A stretch of DNA of 63,685 nucleotides, filler included, from Lophium mytilinum (taxonomy: Eukaryota): the NCBI GenBank assembly GCA_010093605.1. It is 19 parts of 5 records of this genome, joined end to end, with 100 filler letters (N's around TTAATTAATTAA, not from the genome) between each part and the next. Parts side by side here need not be neighbours in the genome. Positions count along the whole stretch, not along the records: positions 20,177 to 23,168 come from MU004192.1; positions 23,269 to 24,699 come from MU004192.1; positions 24,800 to 26,087 come from MU004192.1; positions 26,188 to 35,798 come from MU004192.1; 15 more parts are not named here. One strand, given 5' to 3'. The position numbers were made by a program, and so were the translations under genes. Below the pieces are notes generated by a model. The model was not told the DNA's origin and ran no database searches. It was given only the letters and a program-made list of their open reading frames with translations. Positions 16,901-62,648 of the stretch are shown piece by piece (positions within the stretch are counted from its first letter, which is position 1; each line of letters starts with the position of its first letter).

Positions 16901-19900
16901 ACTATATTTCTAGTACTACTCTATAAGTACTTCTTTAATAGATATTATACCTATTTAAAAGTATAACTAAAAGTAGCTACTTTTATTACTAGCGCGCGTG
17001 GATTTATATATCTTCTACTATAGTTACCTTATTTTTTAACGTGCATAATTCTAAGGTTAATTATACTATAAGTAGTGTCTACTATTATAACTTTATAGGT
17101 AAGTAACTACCTTACTTATTACTTACTATTACTATTTATTTAATATTATTAGCCTTCTACCCGCTCTTGCCTATATTACTATATAACGCTATTCTATCTA
17201 CTAACTCTACCCTCTTTTATCTATCTTTCTTATACCTTAACTTCTTATCTTATTTACCTAATATAGCTAAAGAATTAAGTTAATATACTAGTTACTAATA
17301 ACGCCTTTCTAATAATTAAAATAATAAGAAGTTTAATCTAGATAAATAGTTATTAAGTATAGACTTTAGTTAAGTAGACTATAATAGTAATTTAGAGCTA
17401 AATAAGCTAAATAACTACTATAGCCGCTAGCCTTTCTATAGTAGCTACTAACGCTCTAAACCTACTTAAAGAAAGGCTATAATACTTCTAATAGACCTAC
17501 TATATAATATATCTATATAGAGTAAGGCGGTATCTAATTTTACTAAGAATTCTAAAGGCTACTTAAGTTAAATAAATATTATAGCTAGCTTAGGTCTAGC
17601 TTCTAAGGTATAGCGCTAAATAGAAGCTAACTTATTTATATTAATAGAAAACTTTAAAGCGTATCTATAGATAAAATATCTCTTATAACTAGGCTAAAAT
17701 AACTATAGTAAGAATAACATCTACTTAAATACTTAGTCTAAAATATATATACTTTTTATAGATATATAAAGTTATATATTTAAAAAGTCTTCTATATTAG
17801 CTAAGTAGAAGTAAGTATATTAAATATTAATCTAGTATAAAGTCTATAAAAAATATAAGATATAGGGTAGTATTATTAAAAGTAATAAGAAGTAAAAGCG
17901 GTTTAAGTTAGCCTTATCTATAAAGTTAGTTATATTAGTAGGCCTTAGCTCTCTAATAAAATCCCTAGATATTACTACCTAAAATACTCTATTTAAGCCC
18001 TAGCTATTATATATAGTTCTTACTATAATATACTAGCTACTATAGTAGAAAAGTACTAGACGCCTTTTTACTCTCTATTTTATAAGGTCTAGTAGTAAAG
18101 GCCTAGAGCTAGAAGACTATAGCTTTATAAAGTTTCTAGAAGCTATTAATAGAACTTTTATAGACTNNNNNNNNNNNNNNNNNNNNNNNNNNNNNNNNNN
18201 NNNNNNNNNNNNNNNNNNNNNNNNNNNNNNNNNNNNNNNNNNNNNNNNNNNNNNNNNNNNNNNNNNNNNNNNNNNNNNNNNNNNNNNNNNNNNNNNNNNN
18301 NNNNNNNNNNNNNNNNNNNNNNNNNNNNNNNNNNNNNNNNNNNNNNNNNNNNNNNNNNNNNNNNNNNNNNNNNNNNNNNNNNNNNNNNNNNNNNNNNNNN
18401 NNNNNNNNNNNNNNNNNNNNNNNNNNNNNNNNNNNNNNNNNNNNNNNNNNNNNNNNNNNNNNNNNNNNNNNNNNNNNNNNNNNNNNNNNNNNNNNNNNNN
18501 NNNNNNNNNNNNNNNNNNNNNNNNNNNNNNNNNNNNNNNNNNNNNNNNNNNNNNNNNNNNNNNNNNNNNNNNNNNNNNNNNNNNNNNNNNNNNNNNNNNN
18601 NNNNNNNNNNNNNNNNNNNNNNNNNNNNNNNNNNNNNNNNNNNNNNNNNNNNNNNNNNNNNNNNNNNNNNNNNNNNNNNNNNNNNNNNNNNNNNNNNNNN
18701 NNNNNNNNNNNNNNNNNNNNNNNNNNNNNNNNNNNNNNNNNNNNNNNNNNNNNNNNNNNNNNNNNNNNNNNNNNNNNNNNNNNNNNNNNNNNNNNNNNNN
18801 NNNNNNNNNNNNNNNNNNNNNNNNNNNNNNNNNNNNNNNNNNNNNNNNNNNNNNNNNNNNNNNNNNNNNNNNNNNNNNNNNNNNNNNNNNNNNNNNNNNN
18901 NNGAGAAAGCGCTAGTAGAGAAAGCGCTAGTAGAAATAGTAAAAGTAAAGAAAGAAAGAAAGAAAAAAGAGATAAAAAAGAAAGAGATAAAGAAGAGAGA
19001 GCTAGTAGATATAGTAATAGTGGAGAAGGCTAAAAAGTAAATAAAATAGAAGAAGAGAGAGCTAGCTAAAACCGCAACTAAAGAGAAAGTAAAGAGGTAG
19101 AAATAGCTAGAAGAGATAGCGGAGTAAAAGAAATAAAGAAAGTAAAAACTACTAGTAGAGAAGAAGATATAGAAGCTATAAATAGAGAAGAAAGTATAAC
19201 TAATCTAATAAATACTTAATATTATCTAGCTATATACTAAGTTAATATATAATTCTATTTAGTCTAGTATTATCTATAATAAGGTTATATAGTAGCTTAG
19301 AGCGCTTAGGCCTAAAACTACTTAGTATTTAACTACCTAAAAATAACTCTATATACTTATAGTTACTATAGAGAGTAGCTAGACTATCTCTAGTAATACC
19401 TAAGTTATAGAGGATATAGTAATTAGTAGTATTAATATTATAGCTATGCTTAAATTTAATATATATAGTCTTAGTAAGACTAAACCCTCTATAGATATAA
19501 ATAAGATAATTATAGCTAATATAGAAAAGGTAGATGCTATTAATATTACTACTATAATAGCCCTAATATTAAGCTCTATAAAGAATATCTTAGTAGTAGT
19601 ATTTAAGAAGGTGCTATAGTTTTTTAGTTTATCTCTAATATATAGGAATTTTTCTAGTAATATAATCTTTAAGCTGCTAGAAATAACTACTAATTTAAAA
19701 ATATATATAGCTCTATACTAGATAGCCGGAATATATAGTATTATCTAAGGTCTTACTAGTAGAGTATATAGGCTAATTCTTATAGACCCCTCTAGAATAG
19801 AAAAAACTCTATAAATATTAATAGTATTTACTACTTATACTAGAAAGGCTAGTACTAATACTCTATATTCTAGTAGTATTAAAGGCTGCATTATTTAGCT

Positions 19901-20076
19901 TACTAAGAAGAGTCTACTAAATTAGACCTATAAGAAGGTAAAATACTAGCTAGATATTAAATATAAGAATAAGAATTTTAAGGTCTCTAGTAGAAGACTT
20001 TATATCTAGCGTATATATAAAAGTATTATAGAGGGTAACCTTACCCCTAAAGACTAGAAGAACCTTAAGCTTATCT
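13953..20076 (+). repeat. Additional direct copies of block B: 13953-15422 (~20636-22102), 15433-18166 (~20373-23105), 18903-20076 (SNF2 N-half, ~23408-24582)
   Basis: Near-identical collinear sequence with copy-specific transitions (compare 14101-14130, 15845-15874 and 20782-20812). Confidence 0.92.
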
Positions 20077-20176
20077 NNNNNNNNNNNNNNNNNNNNNNNN
20101 NNNNNNNNNNNNNNNNNNNNTTAATTAATTAANNNNNNNNNNNNNNNNNNNNNNNNNNNNNNNNNNNNNNNNNNNN

Positions 20177-21990
20177 TATTAGCCTTTACTATTCTAGACT
20201 ATATATTACTATTAGGCCTAATATATTTAAATAGTTAGTTAGTATTAGTATAGGTAGATACGCTTATATTCTAAATAAAATAGTTAGGGTTAGAAGAGAG
20301 GCTATAATTTAATAGTAAGTAGGTTATTAGAAGAGTTTAGGGCTTTAGTCTAATATACGCTGGTGGTATATTAGCTATTATTATAGAAGGCGTAAGTTGC
20401 TATAGCAGTAGCTACCTTCTAGAGAGTTAGAGTTAAGGCCGGTATAATATTAGGCTAATAATTAGATTAGAACTAAGTACTATTATATCTAGTAAGATAT
20501 TAGTCGCGTTAAGAGGCTTTTATCTAAATATATATCTAACAGCTAAATTACCTAGTAGAATGCAGGTACTATATAGTAGTTAATTAGTCTTCTAAATATC
20601 TAAGTATTACCCTATTATCTTTCTTATCTACTTTTAACCTACCTCTACTAATTTTAAGCTATACTTAAGAGTTAGCCTTATAGCATACTATAATAGGTAA
20701 ACCTAAGTATTACTAACCTATATATATTCTAGAGGCGTAGCCTATAAAATATAACTACGCAATTCTACTACTTCTAGAAAGGCTAAATCCGCAAGAAGAA
20801 GCGCGTTAACCCGGTTATTAGAGCGCGAGCTGTAAGAGATAGAAAGAGAGTAGAAACTACTAAGTAGAGCCTCTAGAAAGTGCTATCTAGAGTAGTAGAG
20901 AACTATAAGAGAGAGAAATATATAGGCTAGTTAAATATAGACTATAGTTAGCCTAGCGCTAGTAGGGGTAAGTAAGTAGATAAGAAGTATAATAAATATA
21001 TAGGTAGGTAACGCTAGTCTTTCTAGATAGATTAAAGTGGGTGTTCTCTATATAGAGGCGGTGTACGCGCTAGTAGAAAGGCTAGAGAGTAAGGGTACTT
21101 ATTTAGTAAGGGAGAGAGTAGGTAAGTAAGCTATTCTATAGTATAAGCTAAATTAGTAATACTTATAAGAAGGGTAGATAGTAAAAAGATATATAAATTA
21201 GTACTACTATCTACTAGCTTATAAGGCGCAACTTTAGTAGATAATAAGCTACTATTAGAGGTAGAGAGGCGCGTAGTAGCTTAGGCAATAATAAGCAGTA
21301 TAGTACCTTCTTAGGTAGCTGCAGCTAACTTCTCTTTCTATTCTAAGAACCTTAACCTATTAGCTGCTAATCTAGTAGAGCTTATAATACTAACTTAAAT
21401 AATAGGGGGGGGCACCTATATATAGAAATTAGCCTTTCTCCCTATATTAACTAACCTAGGCAAGTAGAAGGTAATATTAAATAGAAGTTATTACTAATCT
21501 ATTAAGTATTACTAAAAGCTAATAGGTATAGATAAATATTAAGATAGAGGCCAATTATTACTAATTATTAAATAGTAGAGTTTTTTAAGCTATATAACTC
21601 TTTACTTCTATTATATTATAATATAGCCTATTTACTAATTATATACTTAATTATGCGCTACTTTAAACTTTACCTTCTATCTAGCCTTTTAATTCTAATT
21701 CTTATCTACTATTCTTACCTATCTTTTTTTCCTTATCCTCCTTCTTCTCTATCTCTCTCTTTTCTCTCTCTCTTCTTCTTCTCCTCCCTCTCTTATATAC
21801 TAACTTTCTTCTCTACGCCTTAGGCTTACCTATACTTACTATATTTCTAGTACTACTCTATAAGTACTTCTTTAATAGATATTATATCTATTTAAAAGTA
21901 TAACTAAGAGTAGCTACTTCTATTACTAGCATGCGTGGATTTATATATCTTCTACTATAGTTGCCTTATTTTTTAACATGCGTAATTTTA
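20177..21990 (-). pseudogene. Degenerate unidentified ORF, divergent from the SNF2 gene, with a K/E/R-rich tract
   Basis: The pyrimidine-rich + strand at 21715-21800 reads as EKKRERKERDREE on -. It is conserved in the three block-B copies. No domain recognised. Confidence 0.45.
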
Positions 21991-22199
21991 AGGTTAATTA
22001 TACTATAAGTAGCGTCTACTATTATAACTTTATAGGTAAGTAACTACCTTACTTATTACTTACTATTACTATTTATCTAATATTATTAGCCTTCCGCCCG
22101 CCCTTGCCCGCATTACTGCATAACGCTATTCTATCTACTAACCCTACCCCCTCCCATCTACCTTTCTTATACTCTAACTTCTTATCTTATTTACCTAAT

Positions 22200-25100
22200 A
22201 TAGCTAAAGAATTAAGTTAATATACTAGTTACTAATAACGCCTTCCTAATAATTAAAATAATAAGGAGTTTAACCTAGATAAATAGTTATTAAGTATAGA
22301 CTCTAGTTAAGTAGACTATAATAGTAATTTAGAGCTAGATAAGCTAGATAACTACTATAGCCACCGGCCTTTCTATAGTAGCTGCTAATACTTTAGACCT
22401 ACTTAGAGGAAGACTATAATACTTCTAGTAGACCTACTATATAATATATCTATATAGAGTAAGGCGGTATCTAATTTTACTAAAAACTCTAAAGGCTACT
22501 TAAGTTAAATAAATATTATAGCTGGCTTAGGTCTAGCTTCTAAGGTATAGCGCTAGATAGAAGCTAACTTATTTATACTAATAGAGAACTCTAAAGCGTA
22601 CCTATAGGTAAAATATCTTTTATAACTAGGCTAAAATAACTATAGTAAGAATAATACCTACTTAGATACTTAGTCTAAAATATATATACTTTTTATAGAT
22701 ATATAGAGTTATATATTTAAGAAGTCTTTTATATTAGCTAAGTAGAAGTAAGTATATTAAATATTAATCTAGTATAAAGTCTATAAGAAATATAAGATAT
22801 AGGGTAGTATTATTAAAAGTAATAAGAAGTAGAAGCAGTTTAAGTTAGCCTTATTTACAAAGTTAGTTATATTAGTAGGCCTTAGCTCTCTAATAAAATC
22901 CCTAGATATTACTACCTAAAATACTCTATTTAAGCCCCAGCTATTATATATAGTCCTTACTATAATATACTAGCTACTATAGCGGAAAAGTACTAGACGC
23001 CTTTTTACTCTCTATCTTATAAGGTCTAGTAGTAAAGGCCTAGAGCTAGAAAACTATAGCTTTATAAAGTTTTTAGAAGCTATTAATAGAACTTTTATAG
23101 ACTTTAACCCTCTAGAGCACGTTATTATAGTTAATAGAACCTAGAAGTTAATAGAGAATAACTTCTATNNNNNNNNNNNNNNNNNNNNNNNNNNNNNNNN
23201 NNNNNNNNNNNNTTAATTAATTAANNNNNNNNNNNNNNNNNNNNNNNNNNNNNNNNNNNNNNNNNNNNAGAAGTAGAAATAGCTAGTAGATATAGTAAAA
23301 GAAGAGAAAGAAAAAAAGAAGAAAGAGCTAGCAGAAATAGCGAAAGTAGAGAGAGAAAAGAAAGAGAAAGAGAAGAAGGAAAAAGAGTTAGCGGAGAAAG
23401 AGCTGGCGGAGAAAGTGCTAGTAGAGAAAGCGCTAGTAGAAATAGTAAAAGTAAAGAAAAAAAGAAAGAAGAAAGAGATAAAGGAGAAAGAGATAAAGGA
23501 GAGAGAGCTAGTAGATATAGTAATAGCGGAGAAGGCTAAAAAGTAGATAGAATAGAAGGAGAGAGAGCTAGCTAAGACCGCAACTAAAGAGAAAGTAAAG
23601 AGGTAGAAATAGCTAGAAGAGATAGTAGAGTAAAAGAAATAAAGAAAGTAGAAACTACTAGTAGAGAAGAAGGTATAAAAGCTATAAATAGAGAAGAAAG
23701 CGTAACTAATCTAATAGATACTTAATATTATCTAGCTATATACTAAGTTAATATATAATTCTATTTAGCCTAGTATTATCTATAATAAGGTTATATAGCA
23801 GCTTAGAGCGCTTAGGCCTAGAACTATTTAGTATCTAACTACCTAAAAATAACTCTATGCGCTTATAGTTACTATAGAGAGCGGCTAGACTATTTCTAGT
23901 AATACCTAAGTTACAGGGGATATAGTAATTAGCAGCATTAATATTGCGGCTACGCTTAAATTTAATATATATAGTCTTAGTAAGACTAGACTCTCTATAG
24001 ATATAAATAAGATAATTATAGCTAATATAGAGAAGGTAGATACTATTAATATTACTACTATAATAGCCCTAATATTAAGCTCTATAAAGAATATCTTAGT
24101 AGTAGTATTTAAAAAGGTACTATAGTTTTTTAGTTTACCTCTAATATATAGGAATTTTTCTAGTAACGTAACCTTTAAGCTACTAGAAATAACTACTAAT
24201 CTAAAGATACATGCGGCCCTATACTAGATAGCTAGAACATATAGTATTATTTAAGGTCTCGCTAGTAGGGCGCGTAGACTAATTCTTATAAACTTCTCTA
24301 GAATAGAAAAAACTCTATAAATATTAATAGCATTTACTACTTATACTAGAGAGGCTAGTACTAATACTCTGCGTTCTAGTAGCGTTAAAGGCTGTATTAT
24401 TTAGCTTACTAAGAAGAGTCTACTAAATTAGACCTATAAGAAGGTAAAATACTAGCTAGATATTAAATATAAGAATAAGAATTTTAAGGTTCCTAGCGAA
24501 AGACTTTATATCTAGTATATATATAGAAGTATTATAGAGGGTAACCTTACCTCTAAAGACTAGAAGAATCTTAGGCCTATCTACTAAGAAATAAATAGTT
24601 AGGTATAGTATAAGCTAAATCTAAGAGTAAAAACCTACCTTATTATTATAAGCGCGGAGACCTTTAATAAAAAATATAATAAGAATTTAAACTTGCTAGN
24701 NNNNNNNNNNNNNNNNNNNNNNNNNNNNNNNNNNNNNNNNNNNTTAATTAATTAANNNNNNNNNNNNNNNNNNNNNNNNNNNNNNNNNNNNNNNNNNNNA
24801 GTTCTACCTAGAATTTAATAATATATCTCTATATATTATAGCTTTTAGCTATATTAAGTCTATATAGTGTTAGCATGCATTCCACCTAACTATATATAAA
24901 TAGGTAAATATTAACTATATACTTAATTAGGTTTATTAGGGCTAGAACTTAGAAGGGTTTAATAAGGCTACTAATCTATATAGCTACCCTAGAGGCTTAT
25001 TTTATAGTAGGACTTCTTTTCTCTATGGCCCTAAAACTCTATTATATCTAATAGTTATACTATATAGAGGTTTATAGATACTAACTTAGATAGTAGATCT

Positions 25101-26550
25101 AACTAACTTAAACGCTAATATTAAAGACAACCTAGATAATACTCTTCTAGATAAGGAGTTAGAGGAAGAGAATATAGATAAAGGGGATAAGTTTAATATT
25201 CTTTATTAAGGCCCTACCCTCTAGCGTATTAATTAAGAAGACCTTATAGGGGCTAGAGGTTACTACCTTATCTTAAAAATAGAGAAAGAGCGGCAACTAT
25301 AGAATAATTCTAAATTATCTAGGCGTCTCTAGAGAGTGTTAAATATAATTACAGCTATAAGTATCCGCAGAACGCTAATAAGCCTTAGCCTAAATAGCCT
25401 TTCCTTAGGGGATATACTACTCTATATTATATAGTAGATAATAGTTAGTATACCTAACCGCTTTAAACCCTTTATTAAGGAGTACTATATAGTTATTAGA
25501 GAGAGATACGTAGACCTTAAAAAAGAGTATAAAGAATAGCTAAGGCATAGAGTAGTAATTAATAAGCTACTGCCTTTCTTTAGCCTAGGCGCCTTTCTAA
25601 TAGGCTTAGGTAAGGGGAGGCTACCCCGGATTTTTATATTAATTTCTAGGCTAGCTAAGTTAAAAATATAATAGAAAGAGCTTAGCTTAATAAGTAACCT
25701 AATCTTTACTCTAGAAGATATTAAAAATGCGGGCTAGATAGATTATATAGACTTAGAGAGTACCCTTGCTAAATAGTATACTAACCTACTAGCTAATTTA
25801 GGAAAGCTAAAGAAGATTAGAAGCATAGTTTAATATATTTAAGCTAAGAAGAAAAAGATACTAATTATTAGCGAGAAGCCTATAGTTAATTTAGTTATCT
25901 ATATTATAAGTTGCCACCCATCTCTATCTATAATTAGCGATTATTATCTAATAAACTAATATAATTAACACTAGATAATTATAAAGACTATGCTAACTAA
26001 AAAGCTTATATAGTTATATTTATTACTAATAGTTAAGTAATAGAAGTAATTTAATACTAGCTTTAAGCGTAATTAAGATAATCTAGCNNNNNNNNNNNNN
26101 NNNNNNNNNNNNNNNNNNNNNNNNNNNNNNNTTAATTAATTAANNNNNNNNNNNNNNNNNNNNNNNNNNNNNNNNNNNNNNNNNNNNAGTAATTTAATAC
26201 TAGCTTTAAGCGTAATTAAGATAATCTAGCAGCTGTTAATATTCTAGTTATAAACTAGAAGACTAGAAGAGTAGAAGGCTTTAACTTTACTTTTTAATAT
26301 ACGTGCATAATAGTTGTAGAGCTATAGACTGCATCTAGCCTTAAGGTATAAATTATATCTAGAGTATAGTAGAAGAACTAGAGGTCTAATAGAATATATA
26401 GTATTATTCTTACCTATATAGAGGGTAATAACCTAGTAGATACGCTAGCTTAGTTCTATATAGTTAATAATAATAAGTTTATATATAAGATTATATAAAG
26501 TGTACTAAAAAAGAAGAAAAACTAAGGAACTATTAGTACTAAGGTAACTA
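22200..26550 (+). pseudogene. RIP-inactivated SNF2/SWI2-family (SF2) helicase-ATPase with N-terminal K/E-rich coiled coil
   Basis: Motif I de-RIPed from several copies as GLILxDPPGxGKTLQ (~24270-24320; the copy at 61455-61495 on - reads ILIDPPKIGKTL*). Motif II FFNKFY = FFDEFH, seen in the - copy at 36947-36965. IRRT...LP at ~25360-25420. (S)GKL...KMLIISEKP at 25798-25880. GGxEGFNF...VEP...E.Q..SR..R.NQ at 26255-26380. Probable intron ~25905-25974. K/E-rich tract 23269-23700. Start position is approximate. Confidence 0.85.
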
Positions 26551-27099
26551 CTAAATGCACTAATTATATAGTGTATATAGTTCTATAGTAGACATTATAA
26601 AATAAACTATTTTAACTTCTACTTCTATAATATACCTGTAATTACCGCGTTAATAAGTATACTATATCTATAGTAGGTCTACTATAGACTGCCTATTTTT
26701 AATATTAATATAATCCACTTAACTATATACTCGCCGCAAGGCTTAGGTATTAGTAGTGTAAGCCTTAAATATAATTTAAGGCCTAAGTATTAGTAATATA
26801 AACTATAGTATTATATAGGTAAATATCTATATAGCGGCGCTAATACTCTATAGGCCCGCATATATTATTAGTAATATTCTTACACGTTATAAGGTATAGA
26901 AAGGTTATAAGAACTCTCTATTCTACTATTCTAATCTAGACTATAGAATATTAGTAGATAGTATATATCTAATCTTACTTATATTTCTAATAAAGAAATT
27001 TAAATAGAGCAGCCTATAAATTAGAGTATACTATAGGCCCGTAGTAGTATAATTTAGTGCCGTATACACGTACTAGCTAAAAGAAAATAGGTAGAAAAG

Positions 27100-30000
27100 T
27101 ATATACTTACTAATACTAAGCCCTTTCTAGCTACCTATATTTTAATATACTACTAACACTACAGCTAATTAAATATAGAGATAAGTTAGGTTAGTTTTAA
27201 GATAGTATAATATATTTATATGCCACTCTATAGCTAATTTAGACGCTATCTATTTATAACCTTTCTACTTAATTTAGAAAATACTCTAAAATACTATTAT
27301 ATTTATTACGCTTCTTAATATATTTAAGTTGCTAGAGAAAGTATATATCCCTAGTTCTAGCTATTATATAAATTAAATAAGAGTATCCTAAAATAGGCGT
27401 ATAGGCCTATACTTTTATAATATTAGTATCCCTATACTATATATAATTAGCTAAAGCCCTAAAGCATTATAACAGCGCCCTATAATAATATTAATAATTA
27501 TAAAAAAGAAAGCACCGCCTAAGCATATATTTAGATAAATAAACCGGGCTGTTATATAGTAATAGTTAATAATAGAGTATTATTTATAATTATCTCTAAT
27601 ACTTAAGTATATAAATATATTAGGCAGCAGCATAAAATATAGAATTTTTAGCCTAATACTAAACTATCTAGATCTTACACTAATAACTTAATAAATGCTA
27701 GGTTGCTATTAATATAAAGGGGCTTTAGTTCCTTTTTAAGAGAAGAGGCAGTATAGGTATTCTATTAATTACTATAAAATAGTTACTACTAAAGTAGCTA
27801 ATTTAGTTATATAGACGCGATAAGAGTCTAGTCTTAGTACCCTATTATCTAAATATATATATAAACTAACTCTAACTTTATCTTTTCTACCCCTTCTGCA
27901 CTCTAAGAATTATTAAACTATTATATTATTAGATAAATAAGGCTAGTCCCTAATACCTAATAACCTTAAGCTGGACTCTAGGAGTAAGCTTATATAGGGC
28001 CTTAATATTAGCGCCTATAAATATAATACGCTATATACTGTAATAGAGACTAAGATAAGGTTAGTAGACCTACTAGGTAGATTTCTCCGCTTAAAGATAA
28101 TTAGGGGGACAGTATAATCTATAATAATAGATATTATAAAGAAGTTCCCTAAGATACTTTTACGCGTTCTACTTAAAGAAGAATATAAGTAGATATTAAA
28201 ACTTGCATAGTAATATAACTATAATAAGAAAAGATAAGATTATATTAATATATCTTATTATTCTAATTCTATAGATACTCCGCCTGCTAAATAAAATAGA
28301 ACTTTACCGCACTTTAAATACTACTGCAGTTTAGCGCATATAGAAATAATATTAATATTAGTAAAGTAGCTAGGTAGTAAGGCCGCCCGCATTATACTAG
28401 TATATAAACTTGCACCATCTACACTACTAAAGAGTATACTAGTAATACTAGCCCCTAAATTTAGTATACTTATTACTAGGTTAAATATAATATTTAGTCT
28501 TAATATAGAACATAAAACTATATATTACTATATTATAGATAATCTTAAGTTTCTAGTTAAGAATAAAGTAGACTAGTATATAGTAATAGTGCATTAGAGT
28601 TTATTAAGAGAACTAGACTATATTACTCTAATTATTAAGCCTTAGCTAAATAGTATATTAGATACATGTAATAATTTTAATTAATATAGCTAACGTAAAT
28701 AGATAACACCCCTATACCTATCTACTCTAGCTAGTACTATGCTATTCTTCTATCTATACCTATATTAGCCTCTACTAGTTGCAAATGCCTATATAATAAA
28801 ATAAATAAGTAAGAGATTAGAGCTATAGAAAAAGTTAAAAAGAATATAAGGGTTATATAAGAGATAAGAGTATAGAACTATAAAAGATAGAGAACTTAAA
28901 TAGCGCAAAAGTCTATATACCTAGCTAACCTAATTTATAATTAGACTATTCTATAGCCCGCCTTACTAAGGGAACTAGACTAGGACTATACTACTCTAAG
29001 GCAGGGCCTTATTATAACCTTATACTATCTTACTAGACTAGAATATAGATAGCTTAATATCCCTATATATAGGCGGTATAGAGTTATCTAAACTATAGCT
29101 ATTATTAGAACTAGAAGTATAGCTATATAGCTAAATATTCTAACTAGGTATATAAATTCTATAGGGGGAAAATTTGCTGCTAGTAAACTACCTTTCTATT
29201 CTTTTATTTAGGAACCTCTCTACTATAGAGGAGTACCCTATAATATAGTATATAACTACTTATAGCATAGTAACTAATAGAGGGCTAGAATTATAGAAAG
29301 AAGGCCTAAATAGTAGTAAAGAGGGTATTTTAGGCTAAGAGAGAGGAGAATGCAATAGCTTAAGGTTATATAATTTAGTTAGTAAAGGTAGAGGCGTTTA
29401 TTATAGATAATATAGAAGAGGGATATATACTATAGCTAAAGAAGATAGCTAGCGGGTTATTTGCGCCCGAGTAGGTTGCCTAACTAGGGATAAAGTTAGT
29501 AATAAGGGGATAGCTGCGCGTTGCAATATTAATACCTCTATTAGGGCCTCTAACTTAGCTAGCCATCTATCTAATAATATAGAACGCAAAGTCTATAATC
29601 TCTTAACTAACTACTATTCTAATAGTATAGAAGATGCTATCTAGAAATAATAGTAGAAGGTAGTAGCGCGCGTGCAGTAATTAGTAGAAGTTAATATAAG
29701 TGCGTAAATATAAGCTCTAGTCTAAGGTAATATAATAGAAGAGGTAATTACGTAAATAGAAGTATTTAATTATATAGAATAATAGGGCTTTATTAAGGGG
29801 GGAATAAAGAAGAGGTATATAACTAGCTAAAGATACTAAGTTAATGCATATAGACTGCATCTAGCTAGCTCTATTATATTCTATTATAATAAACGCGTAA
29901 CTTACTCCCCCTTTATTCTCTTCTCTCTACGCTGCTTAATTATAATCTACTTTACTTCTCTTTATAGTTATTATTCTTATACTCTACCTTAAGAAATAGA

Positions 30001-32100
30001 ATGTTTTTTTACTATACACCCCCTATCTATTATTTAGTAAGGCTTAATATTATCTACTTAAATATAGTAAAAGGTAATATAGAACTATCTCTCTCTACCC
30101 TAAATAGAGACTTACTATATAACTTAAATATACTATACTATATACTCTATCTATAGTATATATTAATATATATATAGCTAATATATATAACTATAGATAG
30201 TAAAGAAGTAAAAATACGCTGCCTTAAAACTAATTAACACAGTAACGCGCCTAGCTCTCTTAACTCTAACGCCTGCTAACTAATAATAAATATATAGAAC
30301 TTAATAAGTAAAAGAGAATATACTACTAGAATATTCTAAAATAGTAATGCTATATTATCTTAGCTATCTAGCTGCACCTTATCTCTTGCTAGAAAGAGAA
30401 AACGCGGTATAGAGGATAAGAATAGGCACACGCCTATCTTCTAATCTAGTAATACTAACTTCCGCGTATAAATAGACTTTAAGCGTAAGATTAGCTTATA
30501 TATATATTACGGCTACTCTACTAAGTAGTGCATGCTAATAAATATCTATTAGGGTGCCGCCGTAGTCTAAGATAAGACAGCGGCTAGAATAGAAGCCCGT
30601 AGAGCTATTAACTAAATAACTAGGTTTAATACCTTTATATTAAGCGGTCTACTATTTTTCTCTTCTACTAGCTGCTTCTTAGGTATAGGTAGAGGCATAC
30701 CTATCTATAACCGCATTAGCTTCCTTAGCATAAAATAATGTAGTAAAATAATTTAGATATAGAATAGCGTAGATAGGCATGCTAAAGTACTAACTATAAA
30801 GGTAAAATATATAGTAGTAGAAGAATAAATAAGATACTAGATACTTAAAAGTATAGTATTAGGTACTAATATAATTAGAAAATATAGTAATAACCTTATA
30901 GCCTAGACTAAGAGTATTAGGCTAAATATATTTTAGTAAGTGCTAATATAAATATAGGTAGACATCTATAAAGACTAACTATTCTATACTTAAGCTAATA
31001 TCTCTACTACTCTAGACCCTTTTTACGCGTAGAAGGTATATTACCCTCTCCCTACTTCTATAACCTTATATAATAGCTAATTATAATATATAACCTAGAT
31101 TTATAATACTTTTAGTTATTTCTATAATACTATAATAAAGGTTGCTTATAATATTATATAAGAATACTATAGTCTTAGTTCTATAACTCTAGATATTACT
31201 AGCACCGCGTTAACGCTAATAAAGAATTAGAACTATCTCTTTAGGGCAGATAAAGACTAAGCTAAGGTTAGTTACTAACCTAGTATTAGATAGTATTCTA
31301 ATAGATTATAGGGGCCACCGGCAATCTTTATAGCTAAGGCTATCTAGATAGTAGTTATAGATCTACTCTTTATAGAATAGTCTATAAACGCCTTAAAAAT
31401 ATAAAGATACTTAAAAGAGTTTTTTAACCCCCTCTTAGGTAATACTATTATATATATATATACTTACCTCTACTACGCTATTAGTAAATATACCTTAGGC
31501 TAGAAGCGCATAAACCTAATTTATAGGGTTGCCGCTACTAGTATTAACTACCGCCCCCCTTATATAAGACTATGCTAACTATAAGCTAGGGTAGTAAATT
31601 ATAATAAATATCTTACCTAATAGCGGGTACTTAGCTTACACTGTAAGTACTAACTATTATTCTACTAGTAAGAATTTATTATAAAACGGGTAGGTCGGTA
31701 TATAAACTATAAAGAAGATAATAATAAAAATATATATAATAACCCTAACTGCTATAACGCATTAAATTTAACTAAAGATATAATACTAGAATAATAATAG
31801 GCCTTTACTGTAAGGGTGGCGAGAATAGAAGTAAAGAAGCGGAATTAGTAGTAGAACCTTATTAACTAACGCAAGAAGATATATACGCTAATAAAGTGTA
31901 TTAAGAGCGAAGTATAACTATTTAACTCTAGATACTTATCCTTACTGCGTTTAATTCTATCTAGCCCCCCCCTTAGGGATACTTTATTAGATATTATAGA
32001 TAGTATAGGTAATTATATAAGGTAGAGAGCTAAAGTATAATATACTAATTATATTAACTATAGAATAATAAGATTAATAATATAGAGCCCCTTACTAATA
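27100..32100 (+). pseudogene. Two or more degenerate unidentified ORFs of block C
   Basis: Long frames interrupted mainly by RIP-type TAA/TAG stops (~27870-29130 and ~30330-32100). Intron-like GTAAGT..CTAAC..TAG at ~31643-31667. Possible Cys-rich segment at ~31560-31755. No family recognised. Confidence 0.45.
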
Positions 32101-35100
32101 ATAACTTATACTACTTAGCTCTAATTTATAGGAAGGCTAAAAAGAGTATTAAGATAAAGGACTACTAGAAGCGGTGCCCTCTTAATCTCTTATTTATATA
32201 ATTTAGGCAGCGGTTCTATATAAAGAAAGATAAATATAGCTAGTATAAAAATAACACTATAATTATATCTAATAAGAACTAATATTAAAAGTTTATAGCT
32301 GCCTACATTAAGGCACAGGATTCTAGAGAAGAAAGCCTACGGCTAGTTATTAAGTCGCTTAAGAGTATTAGGGACAAGAAATAGTAGTATAGAATTAGTA
32401 AATAGGGTATAAGTAGGCTCTATCTTACGCTTAGCGTTATCTTTCTATTTTATAATATATATACCATAATTAGATGCATTCTAAATTACTATATAGTCTA
32501 CTATCTAACGCGCAATATATATATTATATGCTATTCCCTAGCCCGGATATCTAGCGCATGCGTTACTAGCTCTAATAGTCTACTAGGATATTAAAATTAT
32601 TAAGATTAGTAATAGTTACGCAATCCTTAGAAATATATATAGGTATTACTATTTATATAATACGTAAAGTCTATAATATATATAAAGTTACTATAAACTA
32701 TAAAGCCCTAGCGGAGGTAGTAAGAAGGGATAACTAGATATACTAGTGCAACTTTAAATTTCCTACTATACGCGATAATTATATATTTAGTATATAAGGC
32801 CCCATCTATATTATTATCTATCTATCTATAACCTAGGCGGATTAGGCAGTTTTAGAAGGTTAGATAGAGGAGGTAGATAGCTATATTTATAAGGACTATA
32901 AAGTAGTTATTAACTATAATAATTGCCTATAATGCTAGATTATCTATAATTAAGAATTGTCTATACAGCCTGCGTGTAAATTTTATACAAGAAGTAGGTA
33001 AACTTTTATAGAGTAGCGTAAAGCCTGCGGAGTAGTAAAATATATAGTCTTCTAGAAGGTTACGTAAGTAACTAGTATTCTCCGCGCGTTTCTTAATTTA
33101 GAAATTCCTAATAAAGTAGATAAAATAAGTATTTATTAATACTTCTTAAATAGCCTACTTTAATCTAGACCTAGAGATATAGGTAGAATATAATATATCT
33201 AATACTATTATAGCTACTATACTATTCTAAATATAAGATAGTATTCTCTACCCGGTTATATTTATATTCTATTAAATAAGCATAGCCTAGCTTAACTATT
33301 AAATCTATAATAAAGAACTTCTAGTAATTATCTACGCCTTTAAAAAATAGTATATAGAACTTACTAGCTATAGGTATAGTAACTCTATTAAAGTCCTTTT
33401 AAATTACTAGACCCTATAATACTTTATAGAAACTAAGTAGCTTAACTAATAGTAGGCTAGATAGGCTAAATTTCTCTCTAAGTTTAACTTCTAGATTATA
33501 TATAGGCTAGGTAAGAATAATAGTAAGGCTAACTTACTAACTAGGCGCCTAGGTAATATACTAGATAAAAATAATAAGCACTATAAGATTTAGTAATAGA
33601 CTATTTTAAAAGACTATAATCTTAAACTAGAAATATATTATACTATTAAACTAGCTTATATTATAACTAACAGCGTAACTTATAATATAGTCTCCCTTAT
33701 AGTAATAATATATAACCTTAGTAAAGTAGAACTTAATTAAGGAAAGTCTTAGAGTAACCTTAATAATAAACTATAGAAGTTACTAGGTAGGTAGAGGGAG
33801 TTATAGAATAGCCCTACTAATAGTACTATAGAGTAAGATATTATAGATTATATATAAGAGGCCCTTACTAATAATACTATTACTAACGCTATTAAAGACG
33901 CTATTAGAGCTAAGCTACGCCGCCTACCTACTAATATAGTTAAAAATTATAGCATTAAGCTTAAACTCTATAACTATATAATCTATAATAGCCTTATCTT
34001 TATTTAGAAGGACCGCTTATACATTTCTACTAAAGAGAAACTTAGATTAGCTATTATTAAAAGCCTATATAAACCCCCGCTAGTTAGTTATAGTAGAACT
34101 ATATCTATCTATAACTGTATTTTAATATACTATTTCTAGCTATAGATAATAAATAATATTAATAGATATATTAAGGCTTATTAGCCTTATAATTATATTA
34201 AGCACGCGCGTAAAGTAAAGTAAGGCTTTCTAAAACTACTACTAATTTCTAAATAATACTAGACTAATCTTATAGTTAACTTTATTAGGCCCCTGCCTAA
34301 GTATACGCGATTTAGACAAGACTACTAATATATTATAGTAGTTATTAATAGACTCTCTAAAATGCGTAAGTTTATTTTAATAGTAATAACGGACGCTAAG
34401 AAAGTCGCCTAGGCCTTTCTAGAATAGGTCTAGCGCACTAAAGAATACCTAGAGTCTATTATATCTAATTAAGGGTTATAATTTATATTAACTTTCTAGT
34501 CCCGCCTATATAAGTATATTAGAATAAAGCTAAAACTCTCTACTATATTCTATTCTAAAATAGATAGATAAATAGAAATTACTAATATAGGTCTAAAGTA
34601 ATACCTTAGAGTATATATTAACTACTAGCAGGATAACTAGTATAACTTCCTTACTGTTACTAAATTTAAGGCTAACTTAGTAAAGAACACCTTAACTAGT
34701 ATAGCACTCTTTATAGCTACTAAGGGCTATATTTCTAGTATAGGCACCGCGCTAGCTATATAGCTACCTAAGAATATAAATATAAATATACTAGCGGTTC
34801 GTCTTATAAAACTTATAGATAAATTTATTACTAGAATAGATAAGTTACGCGCATTCCTCTATATAGAAATTAAGTAGGCCTAAGCTAAGTAAAAGAAATA
34901 TACTAATATAGAATAATAACTAGCTTATATATATTACCTAGGTAACTATATTATACTTAATAGATAATTTATTAAAATAACCTATCTAAATAAGAAACTT
35001 AACTTTAAAAAGCTAGGCCCCTTTAGAATTCTAGAAAGCTATAAAAATAGTAGCATATATAAGCTTAAGCTATTTAAGAGTATAGAAAACCTATACTCTA

Positions 35101-35685
35101 TCTTCTATTCTTAGCTACTCTACCCGGCTAACGCGGTCTCTATAAAAGAATAGTATAATTCTAAGCCCCTACCTATATAGATAACACTAATATATTAGAA
35201 AGAAGATACTAAAAAGGTTATAGATAGCTACCTAGATAAAAGACGTCTTAATTCTACTACTAGTAAAAGGGGTATACTATAATATAAGATTAAGTTTATT
35301 AGATAGAATAATAAACTCTAATAGAATAACTATAATTACGCTAACGGCTGCCTATACCTTATTATAGATTTTTACTACTAATACCTAAAGAAACTAGGCC
35401 CTTATTTATTATTCCAACTACTATTAGACTAGAAGCTAACCTTAGCTACTATTCTTACTACTATAGACCTCTATATAACTAATACTATAGAAGCTATATA
35501 AGTTAATTACTAGACTAGCGGTTAAATTAATTTATTAAGAAGGCCTAACCGCGGACGTGTATAATAATTAATATAATATAATAGCATAGATTATTATAAG
35601 TACCTAGTAGTAGACTAGTAGCTATAAAGGCTATATAGCTTCTTATAGCCCTATTATAGCTAGCCCTAGTCTAAATAAATAATAT

Positions 35686-35798
35686 AATAGTAATACTATA
35701 TATAGTAATACTATATATAGTAATACTACGCATAGTAATACTATATATAGTAATACTATATATAGTAATACTATATATAATAATACTATGTATAGTAA
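35686..35798. repeat. Tandem repeat of ~7.5 x 15 bp (TATAGTAATACTATA), running into a gap
   Basis: Directly visible. One junction retains C/G (TACTACGCATAG), and the motif resumes at 35899. Confidence 0.9.
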
Positions 35799-36151
35799 NN
35801 NNNNNNNNNNNNNNNNNNNNNNNNNNNNNNNNNNNNNNNNNNTTAATTAATTAANNNNNNNNNNNNNNNNNNNNNNNNNNNNNNNNNNNNNNNNNNNNTA
35901 GTAATACTAATAGACTAATAAAGTAGCTATATAATACTATACTAAATAGTAAGGCTGCAGAAGGCTATATAAAAATAGAAAGGATAAATAATTCTATATA
36001 AATTAATTTATTTCCTTTATTTACTTACGGCTAGAATATAATTTAGCACTTTATTTAATAGATATTTAAGCGGTTATAAATACTCTAGTATAAAAAAGAC
36101 CCTCTCTTATAAAAAGCTTTAATTAGGGGGCTTCTTTAGAGGGGGGAAACG

Positions 36152-36351
36152 TATTATAGCTATATAATTACGCATAATATATAACTAGAGGTTACGTAAT
36201 AGAGGCTTTATAAAATAGGTAAATATTACTCCGCCCTTTAGGTTATTATAACGTCCGCCCTAGAAACCTCTTTCTCTCTTATATTTATCTTTTATTAATA
36301 TTAATACTATTTAATCTAATAATTCTAACATTCTAACCTTAAGCCCTAATA
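36152..36351 (+). mobile_element. 200-bp 3' LTR
   Basis: Follows the PPT and has TA...TA ends (RIPed TG...CA). It is the reverse complement of the solo LTR at 60699-60898. Confidence 0.9.
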
Positions 36352-37733
36352 AAGGCTATCTAGGCTAAGGCTTATTAGCGTTCTATAGATGCTTATAGCT
36401 ATAATTATATCTAATACTTTCTAGAAACGCCTAGATAATTTAGAATTATTCTATAGTTACTACTCTTTCTCTATTTTTAAGGTATAGTAGTAACCTCTAG
36501 CCTCTATAAGGTCTTCTTAATTAATATACTAGAGGGTAGAGCCTTAATAAAGAATATTAAACTTATCCCCTTTATCTATATTCTCTTTCTCTAACTCTTT
36601 ATTTAGAAGAGTATTATCTAGATTATCTTTAATATTAGTATCTAAGTTAGTTAGATCTACTATTTAAGTTAGCGTCTATAAACCTCTATATAGTATAACT
36701 ATTAGATATAATAGAGTTTTAGGGCCGTAGAGAAAAGAAGTCCTACTATAGAATAAGCCTCTAGAGTAGCTATATAGATTAGTAGCCTTATTAAACTCTT
36801 TTAAGTTCTAGCCCTAATAAATCTAATTAAGCGCACGGTTAATATTTACCTATTTACGCGTAGTTAGGTGGAATATATACTAATACTATATAGACTTAAT
36901 ATAGCTAAAAGCTATAATATATAGAGATATATTATTAAATTCTAGGTAGAACTTATTAAAAAAAATAGCCCTATATATATATATAGAGGTTACTTTATTA
37001 CTATATAATAGATTATAAAATATTATAAAGGTCTCTAGTAAGTTTAAATTCTTATTATATTTTTTATTAAAGGTCTCCACGCTTATAATAATAAGGTAGG
37101 TTTTTACTCTTAAATTTAGCTTATACTACACCTAACTATTTATTTCTTAGTAGATAGACCTAAGATTCTTCTAGTCTTTAGAGGTAAGGTTACTCTCTAT
37201 AATACTTCTATATATATGCTAGATATAAAGTCTTCTACTAAAGACCTTAAAATTCTTATTTTTATATTTAATATCTAGCTAGTATTTTACCTTCTTATAG
37301 GTCTAATTTAGTAGACTCTTCTTAGTAAGCTAAATAATATAGCCTTTAATACTACTAGAATATAGAGTATTAGTACTAGCCTCTCTAGTATAAATAGTAA
37401 ATACTATTAATATTTATAGAGTTTTTCCTATTCTAGAGAAGTTTATAAGAATTAGCCTATATACTCTACTAGTAAGACCTTAGATAATACTATATATTCT
37501 AGCTACCTAGTATAGGGCTATATATATCTTTAGGTTAGTAGTTATTTCTAGTAGCTTAAAGATTATATTACTAGAAAAATTTCTATATATTAGAGGTAAA
37601 CTAAAAAACTATAGTATCTTCTTAAATACTACTACTAAGATATTCTTTATAGAGCTTAATATTAGGGCTATTATAGTAGTAATATTAATAGTATCTACCT
37701 CCTCTATATTAGCTATAATTATCTTATTTATAT
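36352..37733 (-). repeat. Inverted copy of the SNF2 gene middle (~24001-25401), abutting a Gypsy LTR
   Basis: Reverse complement of the SNF2 region. Contains the 64-aa ORF 36886-37080 with the RIP-altered DExH box. Confidence 0.92.
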
Positions 37734-40800: not shown

Positions 40801-41460
40801 AATATAACAGTTTAATAATTCTTAGAGTATAGAAGAAGTAGAAAAGATAAAGTTAGAGTTAGTTTATATATATATTTAGATAATAGGGTGCTAAGACTAG
40901 ACTCTTATTGTATCTATATAACTAAATTAGCTACTTTAGTAGTAACTATTTTATAGTAATTAATAGAATACCTATACTGCCTCTTCTCTTAAAAAGAAAC
41001 TAAAGCCCCTTCGCATTAATAGTAACCCAGCATTTATTAAGTTATTAGTATAAGATCTAGATAGTTTAGTATTAGGCTAAAAATTCTATATTTTATGCTG
41101 CTGCCTAATATATTTATATACTTAAGTATTAGAGATAATTATAAATAATACTCTATTATTAACTATTACTATATAACGGCCCGGTTTATTTATCTAAATA
41201 TATACTTAGGCGGTGCTCCCTTTTTTATAATTATTAATATTATTATAGGGTGCTATTATAATGCTTTAGGGCTTTAGCTAATTATATATAGTATAGGGAT
41301 ACTAATATTATAAGAGTATAGGCCTACACGCCTATTTTAGAATACTCTTATTTAATTTATATAATAGCTAGAACTAGGGATATATACTTTCTCTAGTAAC
41401 TTAGATATATTAAGAAGCGTAATAAATATAATAGTATTTTAGAGTATTTTCTAAATTAAG
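37834..41460 (-). repeat. Inverted copy of block C (= 27268-30894)
   Basis: Reverse-complement alignment matches at both ends and internally. Confidence 0.92.
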
Positions 41461-49717: not shown

Positions 49718-50379
49718 NNNNNNNNNNNNNNNNNNNNNNNNNNNNNNNNNNNNNNNNNNNNTTAATTAATTAANNNNNNNNNNNNNNNNNNNNNNNNNNN
49801 NNNNNNNNNNNNNNNNNCTATTAACTATTTTATCTTATTTAAGTAGTCTTCTATAGTTAAAAACTTAGATAAAATAGTATTAAATAGTTCCTTATAAATA
49901 AGGAATTTAGAACTAAAGCCCTTTAGGCTATATAGCTTCTTTAGTAGCTTCTAAGCTTCTATTATAGTAGTAGAATACTATAATTGTAATAGAGGGCCGT
50001 CCTCTATAGTAAGCCTAATAGTGGCTAATACTTTTGCATTGTTTTCCTTATTAATAGGAATAGTAGTGCTGCTAATAGTATTACTACAACTTTTTTCTAC
50101 TAAGAGAGATTGTACTCTTAGAGCCTAAACTTTATAGTTAGATTAACTAACTAGCTTAGTAATACTAATTTTATCCATTTTAGATTAAATAGATAGATAG
50201 ATAGCCCGTTAGGTAAATAGATAGATAGATAAATAGATAAATAGATGGATTTCTATATATCTATAGATTTTTGTTTAAATAGATAGATTTCTAGCTATCT
50301 ATGTATTTAATGAATAGATAGATAGATAGAAAGAGAAATATTTCGATTTTTAATCGATTTATCTTCTTATATTAGATAA

Positions 50380-50800: not shown

Positions 50801-50854
50801 CTGTTAGTGCTTTGTATAGCTGTAGATTGCGTGGTGCAATCCGGGCTTATAACC

Positions 50855-62548: not shown

Positions 62549-62648
62549 NNNNNNNNNNNNNNNNNNNNNNNNNNNNNNNNNNNNNNNNNNNNTTAATTAA
62601 TTAANNNNNNNNNNNNNNNNNNNNNNNNNNNNNNNNNNNNNNNNNNNN

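Follow-up and report, generated by a model that had tools for sequence, protein, structure and literature searches.

A probable RIP-degraded repeat family of unassigned class, with no detectable SNF2 sequence, in Lophium mytilinum

The segment at 20177–33200 of a 63,685-nt stretch of Lophium mytilinum DNA (the window) is, on balance, probably a real but ordinary repeat family of unassigned class that has been degraded by RIP and in which no SNF2 helicase is detectable. A preliminary description had placed here an autonomous giant element, encoding an SNF2 helicase and having no recognisable transposase. Comparison of the copies within the window delimits a multi-copy unit that spans at least 13 kb, from 20177 to approximately 33200, and is made up of four contigs whose order (c6-c7-c8-c9) is indirectly supported. 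The part of the description that concerned a large multi-copy unit without a recognisable transposase is borne out over this length, as no Pfam family of transposases, Rep helicases or tyrosine recombinases was found in the unit or its copies at the limited sensitivity that RIP allows.

Make-up of the window and extent of the unit

The window consists of approximately 19 contigs placed end to end, with 18 artificial 100-nt spacers between them, and also includes three ordinary N gaps. The region originally delimited (20177–32750) comprises four contigs and three of the spacers (Table 1), with 12,310 non-N bases. It had been presented as 12.5 kb of collinear sequence; it crosses the three spacers and is not continuous, and what stands is the contig order, for which there is indirect backing. 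Sequences resembling c7 and c8 are contiguous in both c10 and c18, separated by 81 extra nt and in frame, while c8 and c9 overlap exactly over 43 nt at their adjoining ends (26045–26087 and 26188–26230). In the c5 scaffold, c6-like sequence is joined to c7-like sequence across a gap of 736 N, and the link between c6 and c7 is provided by this single gap. Junctions seen more than once were always identical (c7/c8 in three copies and c6/c7 in two), and 27268–31118 is unbroken in three copies.

Nearly all of the ends of the repeated blocks coincide with a contig end or a gap rather than with the terminus of a repeat, and no unit termini, TIRs, TSDs or empty sites were found in the window. The orientation and neighbourhood of the contigs are arbitrary, and recurrence "in both orientations" or "in this window" is therefore uninformative about the genome. 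Windows of this type may be strings of contigs with a spacer that carries stops in six frames, so that apparent collinearity, orientation and local copy number in the raw sequence are possibly artefacts.

Recurrence of kilobase blocks within 20177–32750 is far above chance in this sequence, in agreement with the earlier account. At least one other copy, with 91–95% identity, was found for 8,897 of the 12,310 non-N bases (72%); counted within the one 64-kb window, the number of other copies is one for 3,507 bases, two for 4,808 and three for 582. The c6 contig includes a CT-rich tract (approximately 21668–21814, with a tandem array at 21741–21794 detected by TRF) that mirrors, in inverted orientation, the GA-rich tract of c7.

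Sequences affected by RIP have a TpA/ApT ratio above approximately 0.89 and a (CpA+TpG)/(ApC+GpT) ratio below approximately 1.03. In all 19 contigs both indices were extreme, at 1.5–2.0 and 0.04–0.40, respectively, and the mismatches between copies were almost all C/T or A/G (252 of 253 in a pair of 3,627 nt), which confirms that RIP has acted on this repeated DNA. When C/T and G/A were merged, the copies were 99.9–100% identical (99.9% for c6 and 99.97–100% for c9), with no indels over 2.1–3.6 kb. The GC content of the unit copies is approximately 28%, stop codons occur in all frames and no intact ORF of at least 80 aa is present. The de-RIPed consensus that had been suggested, built from the window copies only, altered 1,440 sites and restored no frame longer than 163 codons. 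Local correction regains no long frame because RIP is near saturation in every copy.

Table 1. Features of the unit, its copies and adjoining sequence in the window
Feature	Position	Strand	Remarks
Artificial spacer N44-TTAATTAATTAA-N44, c6/c7 border	23169–23268	.	
Same spacers, c7/c8 and c8/c9 borders	24700–24799 and 26088–26187		
c6, left part of unit	20177–23168	+	copies c5b 15433–18166 (92.8%) and c5a 13953–15422 (93.7%)
c7	23269–24699	+	GA-rich low-complexity tract 23275–23700, then ORF-A relic; copies c5c 18903–20076, c18 (reverse) 62517–61072, c10 (reverse) 37733–37035
c8	24800–26087	+	ORF-A continued
c9, unit portion	26188–33200	+	multi-copy block 27268–31118, ORF-B, ORF-C; copies c11 (reverse) 41460–37834 (93.0%), c1 3–2331 (92.7%)
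ORF-A relic, c7 part	23721–24698, codon phase 0	+	4–8 stops per 120 codons
ORF-A relic, c8 part	24802–26085, phase 1	+	5–8 stops per 120 codons
ORF-B relic (tentative)	27599–29938, phase 2	+	periodicity p=0.04 and 0.07, marginal
ORF-C relic	29938–31797, phase 1	+	periodicity p=2.5e-5; approximately 600 codons
Ty3/Gypsy pol fragment, 5'-truncated (RNase H, integrase, Tf2-type SH3)	33255–35126	+	adjoins unit, outside 20177–32750
c1	1–2331	+	copy of 28788–31118
c5 scaffold	13953–20076	+	c6-like 13953–15422 and 15433–18166 (overlapping, joined by 10 N), then, after the 736-N gap, c7-like 18903–20076
c10	36344–37733	-	copy: c7 24001–24699, 81 nt, c8 24800–25410
c11	37834–41460	-	copy of 27268–30894
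c18	59902–62548	-	copy: c7, 81 nt, c8 (to 25683)

Searches for other kinds of sequence were negative. There were no Rfam matches at E≤0.1 that would indicate rDNA or another RNA origin, a subtelomeric reading was dropped as no TTAGGG-type repeats are present, and the six frames of c2, c4 and c13 had no Pfam matches. When metagenome contigs were scanned for exact occurrences of two TpA-free anchors, neither anchor was matched. Five sequencing runs from two studies had matches, with a best share of 0.38 and no RNA run among those listed.

Coding relics and the search for a helicase

Several ORF relics had been reported, and this was supported by RIP-invariant purine periodicity combined with stop density, which point to at least two long ORFs on the plus strand; ranking by stop density by itself did not tell the strands apart. 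The purine periodicity of ORF-A was 0.67/0.47/0.45 in c7 (p=6e-9) and reached p=0.009 in c8, compared with p=5e-7 for a known pol relic. With the true 81-nt gap restored, the c8 phase is in frame with that of c7, and in c10 and c18 no stop is met on reading through the c7/c8 junction. ORF-A would have approximately 1,000 codons and a Glu/Lys-rich start. The "divergent gene pair" of the preliminary description was reduced to a weak signal at 20800–21400 in c6 (p=0.057), a contig with no Pfam match, no significant periodicity and weak coding signals only.

None of the three relics could be assigned to SNF2, reverse transcriptase, integrase or another known family. Neither the c7 part nor the c8 part of ORF-A matched any entry in the PDB or Pfam, and no homologues were found among 3,362 candidates for ORF-A ("longer" lengths), 7,998 candidates for ORF-B or, in an exhaustive search, 1.84e9 representatives for ORF-C. 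A weak Pfam match to DUF6532 (31093–31506, E=0.016, below the cutoff) is a faint lead only; in the literature searched, a single account (PMC8955403) mentions this domain, listing it alongside KDZ, Plavaka and CxC2 domains. Weak Pfam matches to TcpE, Arm_3, PSK_trans_fac, CoA_binding_3 and InlK_D2 were judged to be noise.

The SNF2 motifs I, II, IV, V and VI that had been read from the sequence were not recovered by Pfam, by phmmer against the PDB, or by scans for intact or RIP-compatible motifs, and visual recognition of helicase motifs in translations scrambled by RIP is unreliable. The Pfam domains SNF2-rel_dom (PF00176) and Helicase_C (PF00271) were absent from the six frames of 19001–33003 at E≤0.01, from 54 pieces of c9 and 30 pieces of c6–c8 at E≤10, and, at E≤1, from 21 frames on the coding strand of the other copies. 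Together the six-frame Pfam scans span 19001–35798, at a sensitivity lowered by RIP. As they did not detect the integrase core of known Gypsy relics, or any RT in them, a transposase or helicase with heavy damage could escape notice. Searches of the PDB with four ORF-relic queries returned no SNF2 chain, and those with 20177–33201 returned no SNF2 ATPase in all three plus frames and two of the three minus frames. In the same search an equally RIP-damaged Gypsy pol relic, the positive control, matched Ty3 with E=7.5e-10.

Motif patterns for I, Ia, II, III, IV, V and VI found no intact SNF2 motif in six frames. When RIP was allowed for, motif I had no matches and motif II none in 20–33 kb, while the remaining motifs were near the reversed-sequence background and formed no ordered set in one frame. 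Escherichia coli RapA, used as a RIP-aware probe, scored 45.7 against a null maximum of 52.6, which is weak evidence given that the probe is distant. An isolated motif-like string, GLGKG, is present in a translation of c8, and a RIP-compatible string resembling motif V lies at 25202–25240 on the minus strand, in a stop-rich frame.

Retroelement sequence beside and within the unit

The right boundary of the unit is formed by the 5'-truncated Ty3/Gypsy fragment, in which RNase H, integrase and SH3 follow in that order on one strand. Pfam detected RT_RNaseH_2 (33114–33353, E=5.9e-9, above the cutoff), RT_RNaseH (E=1.2e-6) and SH3_Tf2-1 (34956–35126, E=1.4e-5), and the PDB match was the Ty3 Gag-Pol structure 7q5b. 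A search with the pol query gave one hit among 7,999 candidates (E=7.8e-4), a Gypsy protein from Cyclocybe aegerita (P0001) that then served as the probe. In a RIP-aware alignment, residues 1013–1476 of P0001 fell on 33255–34586 with a score of 270, against a null of at most 44, the alignment in c9 running from RNase H onward only. Plain tblastn with P0001 gave approximately 31 bits only and the RIP-aware aligner was used instead; blastn with a collapsed alphabet (reward 2, penalty -3) was degenerate, the reversed control scoring equally, and was dropped.

With this probe no RT was found upstream of the c9 fragment, whereas RT was detected in the control copies in c3 and c16, with scores of 190 and 240, and protease, gag and LTRs are likewise absent from the fragment. 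P0001 remained at null level (at most 46) on c1, c5–c8, c10, c11, c18 and on c9 before 33255, the sole higher score among the unit contigs being 56 in c10. When c9 was compared with c3 and c16 in a MAFFT-based breakpoint profile, no sharp break was seen below 33.2 kb.

Two copies of the unit are interrupted, and these are the only departures from the common junction order. The copy in c10 is broken at the left by an LTR element (3' LTR at 36152–36351, polypurine tract at 36140–36151), and that in c18 includes a 200-bp solo LTR (60699–60898) flanked by a 5-bp duplication. At both positions the inserted sequence is a 200-bp LTR belonging to some retroelement.

Origin of the unit and comparison with known systems

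As an ordinary RIP-degraded repeat, the four neighbouring contigs c6–c9 would represent one destroyed family whose unit is at least 13 kb long and occurs in at least three to four copies. These appear to have been virtually identical before RIP, and the unit may therefore have multiplied in a short burst, after which each copy would have become riddled with C-to-T and G-to-A transitions. One strand would carry at least two long gene relics (ORF-A and ORF-C), with ORF-B as a possible third. Our best guess is that the unit derives from a mobile element of large size, or one associated with transposons, or from the cargo of such an element, mobility being suggested by copy number and pre-RIP identity alone. 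It may have spread in a transposon-rich compartment, with LTR retroelements inserted later, and now adjoins a truncated Gypsy element. RIP-mutated DNA in Neurospora is prone to heterochromatin formation, and by analogy the unit, presumably inert today, would serve only as AT-rich, heterochromatin-prone filler.

It is rather unlikely that the unit began as an endogenous gene cluster that was amplified, or segmentally duplicated, in the manner of X3X3R8, with host genes, perhaps DNA-repair helicases among them, multiplied by recombination, not transposition, and then mutated by RIP. There is a precedent of the same kind in Stagonospora nodorum (PMC3017866), and several ORF relics with neither transposase nor termini would fit, as would the two overlapping copies that lie side by side on each of the c5 and c12 scaffolds. 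However, these side-by-side copies are joined by 10-N scaffold gaps only and may be assembly artefacts, Rad5/SNF2, UBC and any other host-gene domain are undetectable, and the unit sits among Gypsy relics and has itself been hit by LTR elements.

Less likely still is a mosaic of unrelated, ordinary TE fragments that were co-amplified as neighbours or mis-joined by the assembler, in which case there would be no 13-kb element in any biological sense. The artificial spacers between the four contigs, the blocks that end where contigs end, the variation by block from one to three other copies, and the nested LTR insertions and Gypsy fragment of a TE graveyard are compatible with this. However, the contig ends account for the block-wise differences in copy number, every junction present in more than one copy is identical, and Gypsy pol signal and other TE domains are absent from all blocks.

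We are also doubtful that the unit is a multi-gene mobile element of undescribed class, at least 13 kb long, with an ORF-A and ORF-C that have no detectable relatives and a burst before RIP. Were a less mutated copy present at another site in this genome or within the species, the unit might yet turn out to be a large element of a new kind, a result that would bear on the origin of gene-carrying giant repeats in fungal accessory compartments. As it is, the unit is of little importance, RIP-degraded repeats of obscure origin being common in AT-rich ascomycete compartments. An autonomous giant DNA transposon of undescribed class, with an SNF2 ATPase acting in mobilisation or chromatin remodelling, is highly improbable: a large, multi-copy, multi-ORF unit lacking a known transposase would suit it, as would the isolated motif-like strings and a RIP-limited sensitivity at which Pfam missed the Gypsy integrase core, but the SNF2 domains are absent even at E up to 10, five of six frames gave no SNF2 ATPase in a PDB search that recognised the control relic, the motif scans and RapA probe stayed at background and no termini were found.

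For the ordinary repeat family that we favour, the closest precedent is X3X3R8 of S. nodorum SN15, described by Hane & Oliver in 2010 (PMC3017866) as a 26-kb pattern with Rad5/SNF2-like helicases, Rad6/UBC and unknown ORFs, in which R8 is present at 48 copies and there is no transposase. The claim of an unclassified or poorly described class is weakened by this published precedent. By that description, both are large, multi-copy, multi-gene and RIP-degraded, with no transposase recognised; the X3X3R8 ORFs are likewise broken into short pseudogene pieces, and the repeat came to light only through RIP-aware analysis. Unlike the unit, X3X3R8 is described (PMC3017866) as having clear blastx matches to Rad5/SNF2-like helicases and Rad6/UBC, with functional genes in some copies; in the unit no helicase, UBC or other domain is detectable, and UQ_con had no Pfam match in six frames at RIP-limited sensitivity.

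The 3' end of c9 is a RIP-mutated fragment of the same kind as yeast Ty3, with further copies in c3 and c16, whereas the RIP-aware probe gave no signal for RT, RNase H or integrase in the unit from 20177 to approximately 33200, in which LTR-like direct repeats are also absent. Starships are mobile elements of tens to hundreds of kb, usually low-copy, with cargo genes and a tyrosine-recombinase captain containing DUF3435. The unit resembles them in being large, multi-gene and fungal, with no classical transposase recognised, and differs in that DUF3435 or a tyrosine recombinase was not matched by Pfam. The literature searched held no work joining Starship, SNF2, cargo and tyrosine recombinase. 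RIP-degraded, AT-rich blocks of ascomycetes have a GC content of approximately 25–30%, an excess of TpA, depletion of CpA/TpG, transition-only divergence and nested TE relics. The window is such a block and does not differ from others of that kind.

Contig structure and copies of the repeat unit

The window is AT-rich throughout its 63,685 bases (GC 16–31% in 2-kb windows) and is broken by 39 N runs. Of these, 36 pair up into 18 identical 100-nt spacers, each consisting of 44 N, TTAATTAATTAA and a further 44 N with a stop in all six frames; the remaining three are normal gaps (10, 736 and 10 N). The window thus comprises about 19 distinct contigs or scaffolds joined end to end, numbered here c1 to c19 in order, and features that span a spacer are no genomic fact. 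The region 20177–32750, which the preliminary description took as 12.5 kb of collinear sequence with blocks recurring 3–4 times in both orientations, crosses three spacers and covers c6, c7, c8 and two-thirds of c9. As contig orientation and neighbourhood are arbitrary, neither the orientation nor the copy count in the window is a genomic fact, but the kilobase matches are real. Nearly all ends of the repeat blocks coincide with contig ends or gaps.

Despite the spacers, the order c6–c7–c8–c9 is probably collinear, on indirect evidence. An exact 43-nt overlap is shared by c8 and c9, and sequences like c7 and c8 are contiguous in both c10 and c18, where the junction includes 81 extra nt that keep the reading frame open, with no stop codon. 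Sequences like c6 and c7 are linked in scaffold c5 over a 736-N gap, and wherever a junction occurs in more than one copy it is unchanged. Two secondary insertions account for all true structural differences among copies. The one in c18 is a 200-bp solo LTR flanked by a 5-bp target duplication, with ends corresponding to RIP-altered TG...CA. In c10, the same 200 bp was found inverted directly after a polypurine tract; here it forms the 3′ LTR of an inserted retroelement, which breaks up that copy. Between the two LTRs there are 27 differences, all of them transitions.

Comparison of the window with itself revealed kilobase matches at 91–95% identity. At least one other copy was found for 72% of the 12,310 real bases of the region, and three for 582 bases. 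RIP signatures were typical in all 19 contigs (TpA/ApT 1.5–2.0; (CpA+TpG)/(ApC+GpT) 0.04–0.40), and mismatches between copies were nearly all transitions (C/T and A/G), including 252 of the 253 between a 3,627-nt pair. In a collapsed alphabet that treats C and T as one letter and G and A as another, the copies were 99.9–100% identical with zero indels across 2.1–3.6 kb, indicating that they were essentially identical at the time of RIP.

Other repeats were also present. A second multi-copy RIP-mutated family of about 2.5 kb (93–94% identity) in c4 and c12 is adjacent, in contig order, to copies of the unit, and Pfam detected nothing in its c4 copy. Scaffolds c12 and c5 each hold a pair of overlapping copies of a single repeat with just 10 N between them, reflecting either a tandem array or an artefact of scaffolding. 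The least RIP-mutated contig, c15 (index 0.40), contains internal repeats, both direct and inverted, of about 240–270 nt and has a 204-nt stretch in common with c17, identical in the collapsed alphabet.

Features of the repeat unit and other repeats in the window
Feature	Contig	Position	Strand	Details
Artificial spacers (four of 18 places)		2332–2431, 5744–5843, 20077–20176, 62549–62648		Identical sequence
Contig	c6	20177–23168		Matches two pieces of c5
CT-rich tract	c6	21668–21814		Inverted counterpart of GA-rich tract
Contig	c7	23269–24699		Matches end of c5; reversed, c18 and c10
GA-rich tract	c7	23275–23700		Periodicities 15, 45 and ~105 nt
ORF-A	c7, c8	23721–24698 (phase 0), 24802–26085	+	In frame through 81-nt gap; p=6e-9 (c7), p=0.009 (c8)
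Contig	c8	24800–26087		Matches c18 and c10, reversed
Contig	c9	26188–35798		
Repeat block	c9	27268–30894		Matches entire c11, reversed
Repeat block	c9	28790–31118		Matches c1
ORF-B	c9	27599–29938	+	Marginal, p=0.04 and 0.07
ORF-C	c9	29938–31797	+	p=2.5e-5
RT_RNaseH_2	c9	33114–33353	+	Pfam E=5.9e-9, above curated cutoff
RT_RNaseH	c9	33168–33485	+	Pfam E=1.2e-6
Tf2-type integrase SH3	c9	34956–35126	+	Pfam E=1.4e-5
15-nt tandem array	c9	35678–35798		8 copies, 89% matches
3′ LTR	c10	36152–36351		With tract, 36140–36351
Solo LTR	c18	60699–60898		
Ty3/Gypsy relic, RIP-mutated	c3	8531–11049	−	RT, RNase H, integrase
Ty3/Gypsy relic, RIP-mutated	c16	54950–56044	−	RT, RNase H
Second family	c4	11345–13850		
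Second family	c12	41671–44176, 44187–45508		
Internal repeats	c15 (49818–54042)	50854–51437, 51883–52120		
Stretch shared with c15	c17	57747–57950		

A truncated Gypsy relic at the right boundary

One coherent Pfam signal, in a single frame, was found when c9 was searched in short pieces, and this pol relic matched the yeast Ty3 Gag-Pol polyprotein in a search of PDB sequences (E=7.5e-10). It was examined further with a RIP-aware aligner, in which each codon is converted to a probability distribution over pre-RIP amino acids and a probe is aligned to the resulting matrix. The probe was P0001 from Cyclocybe aegerita, the sole Gypsy polyprotein retrieved. On c9 it scored 270 (null 37–44), with only residues 1013–1476 aligned, to 33255–34586. 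No match was detected in c9 upstream of 33255, or in c1, c5–c8, c10, c11 and c18, whereas the same probe detected RT in the Gypsy relics of c3 (score 190) and c16 (score 240). The c9 Gypsy is therefore 5′-truncated, and the unit, from 20177 to about 33200, is judged from these alignments not to be Gypsy-derived. In the collapsed alphabet, the c3 and c16 relics show about 83% similarity to each other; their relationship to the c9 fragment is confined to the RNase H region. The tandem array at the end of c9 is probably the reason for the assembly break there.

Coding relics and the search for an SNF2 helicase

No ORF of 80 aa or longer survives in the unit. As RIP produces only transitions, it leaves the purine/pyrimidine pattern unaffected, and coding relics were sought using stop density and RNY periodicity, with the pol relic as calibration (purine fractions of 0.59/0.51/0.44 and p=5e-7 there). 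On the plus strand, ORF-A, ORF-C and, marginally, ORF-B emerged as relics. A GA-rich, low-complexity tract coding for Glu and Lys lies just upstream of ORF-A, and its CT-rich counterpart is about 1.5–2 kb away. The divergent gene pair previously proposed, which involves c6, is only weakly supported (p=0.057).

The SNF2 helicase that the unit had been said to encode was not recovered. SNF2-rel_dom and Helicase_C were absent from Pfam searches of six frames of 19001–33003 (E<=0.01), of c9 in 54 overlapping pieces and c6–c8 in 30 (E<=10), and of 21 coding-strand frames of other copies. Many fungal SNF2 ATPases are present in the PDB. A phmmer search of all PDB sequences, using four pieces of the ORF relics and the whole unit in all three plus frames and two of the three minus frames, returned no SNF2 chain and no match below E=0.07; the equally damaged pol relic, recognised by the same search, served as the positive control. 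Intact SNF2 motifs were not seen in any frame of the window. A permissive scan that accepted any RIP-compatible ancestor gave no match to motif I and none to motif II within 20–33 kb. Matches to the remaining motifs hardly exceeded, if at all, the background from reversed sequence, and nowhere did a single frame hold them as an ordered set. Escherichia coli RapA, a distant and hence weak RIP-aware probe, scored 45.7 against a null maximum of 52.6. No homologues were found for ORF-A among 3,362 candidates, ORF-B among 7,998 or ORF-C among 1.84 billion representatives. Isolated look-alikes do occur, for instance GLGKG in c8 and, in a minus-strand frame rich in stops, a string resembling motif V; these are probably the source of the SNF2 call. 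A very badly damaged domain could still hide, since neither the integrase core nor any RT was detected by Pfam in the known Gypsy relics.

Pfam searches of the neighbouring c2, c4 and c13 gave zero matches, and the anchors 22088–22113 and 23390–23418 had no exact match in public metagenome contigs. An rDNA or other RNA gene origin was rejected (no Rfam matches), as was a subtelomeric location, no TTAGGG-type telomere repeats being present.

Origin of the unit and comparison with known repeats

The region is a real RIP-killed repeat family, for which we moderately favour an origin as a large mobile or transposon-associated element. Its unit is at least 13 kb, was present in at least three to four copies that were identical before RIP, and bears what is left of two or more long genes that match no recognised family. 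It lies in a transposon graveyard, adjoining the truncated Gypsy and struck by LTR insertions, and mobility or association with transposons may account for its multiplication. A host gene cluster amplified in the manner of X3X3R8, a RIP-degraded repeat family of S. nodorum, is a less likely alternative. Somewhat less probable is a mosaic of unrelated fragments, which the crossing of three spacers would allow and the c8/c9 overlap, the c10 and c18 read-through and the c5 linkage argue against. An SNF2 transposon is very improbable. The large multi-copy unit of the preliminary description stands, and no SNF2 helicase was found in it. No paper in the library searched ties SNF2 to Starship cargo, nor did a wider search combining SNF2 with DNA-transposon superfamilies find such an element described, judging by the listings.

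The closest precedent for the unit is X3X3R8, a 26-kb RIP-degraded multi-copy cluster without a transposase that contains Rad5/SNF2-like helicases, Rad6/UBC and unknown ORFs (PMC3017866). The unit behaves like an object of that kind, but the helicase and UBC, the sole features by which membership could be judged, are undetectable in it. It belongs with the already known RIP-degraded repeats of unrecognised origin.
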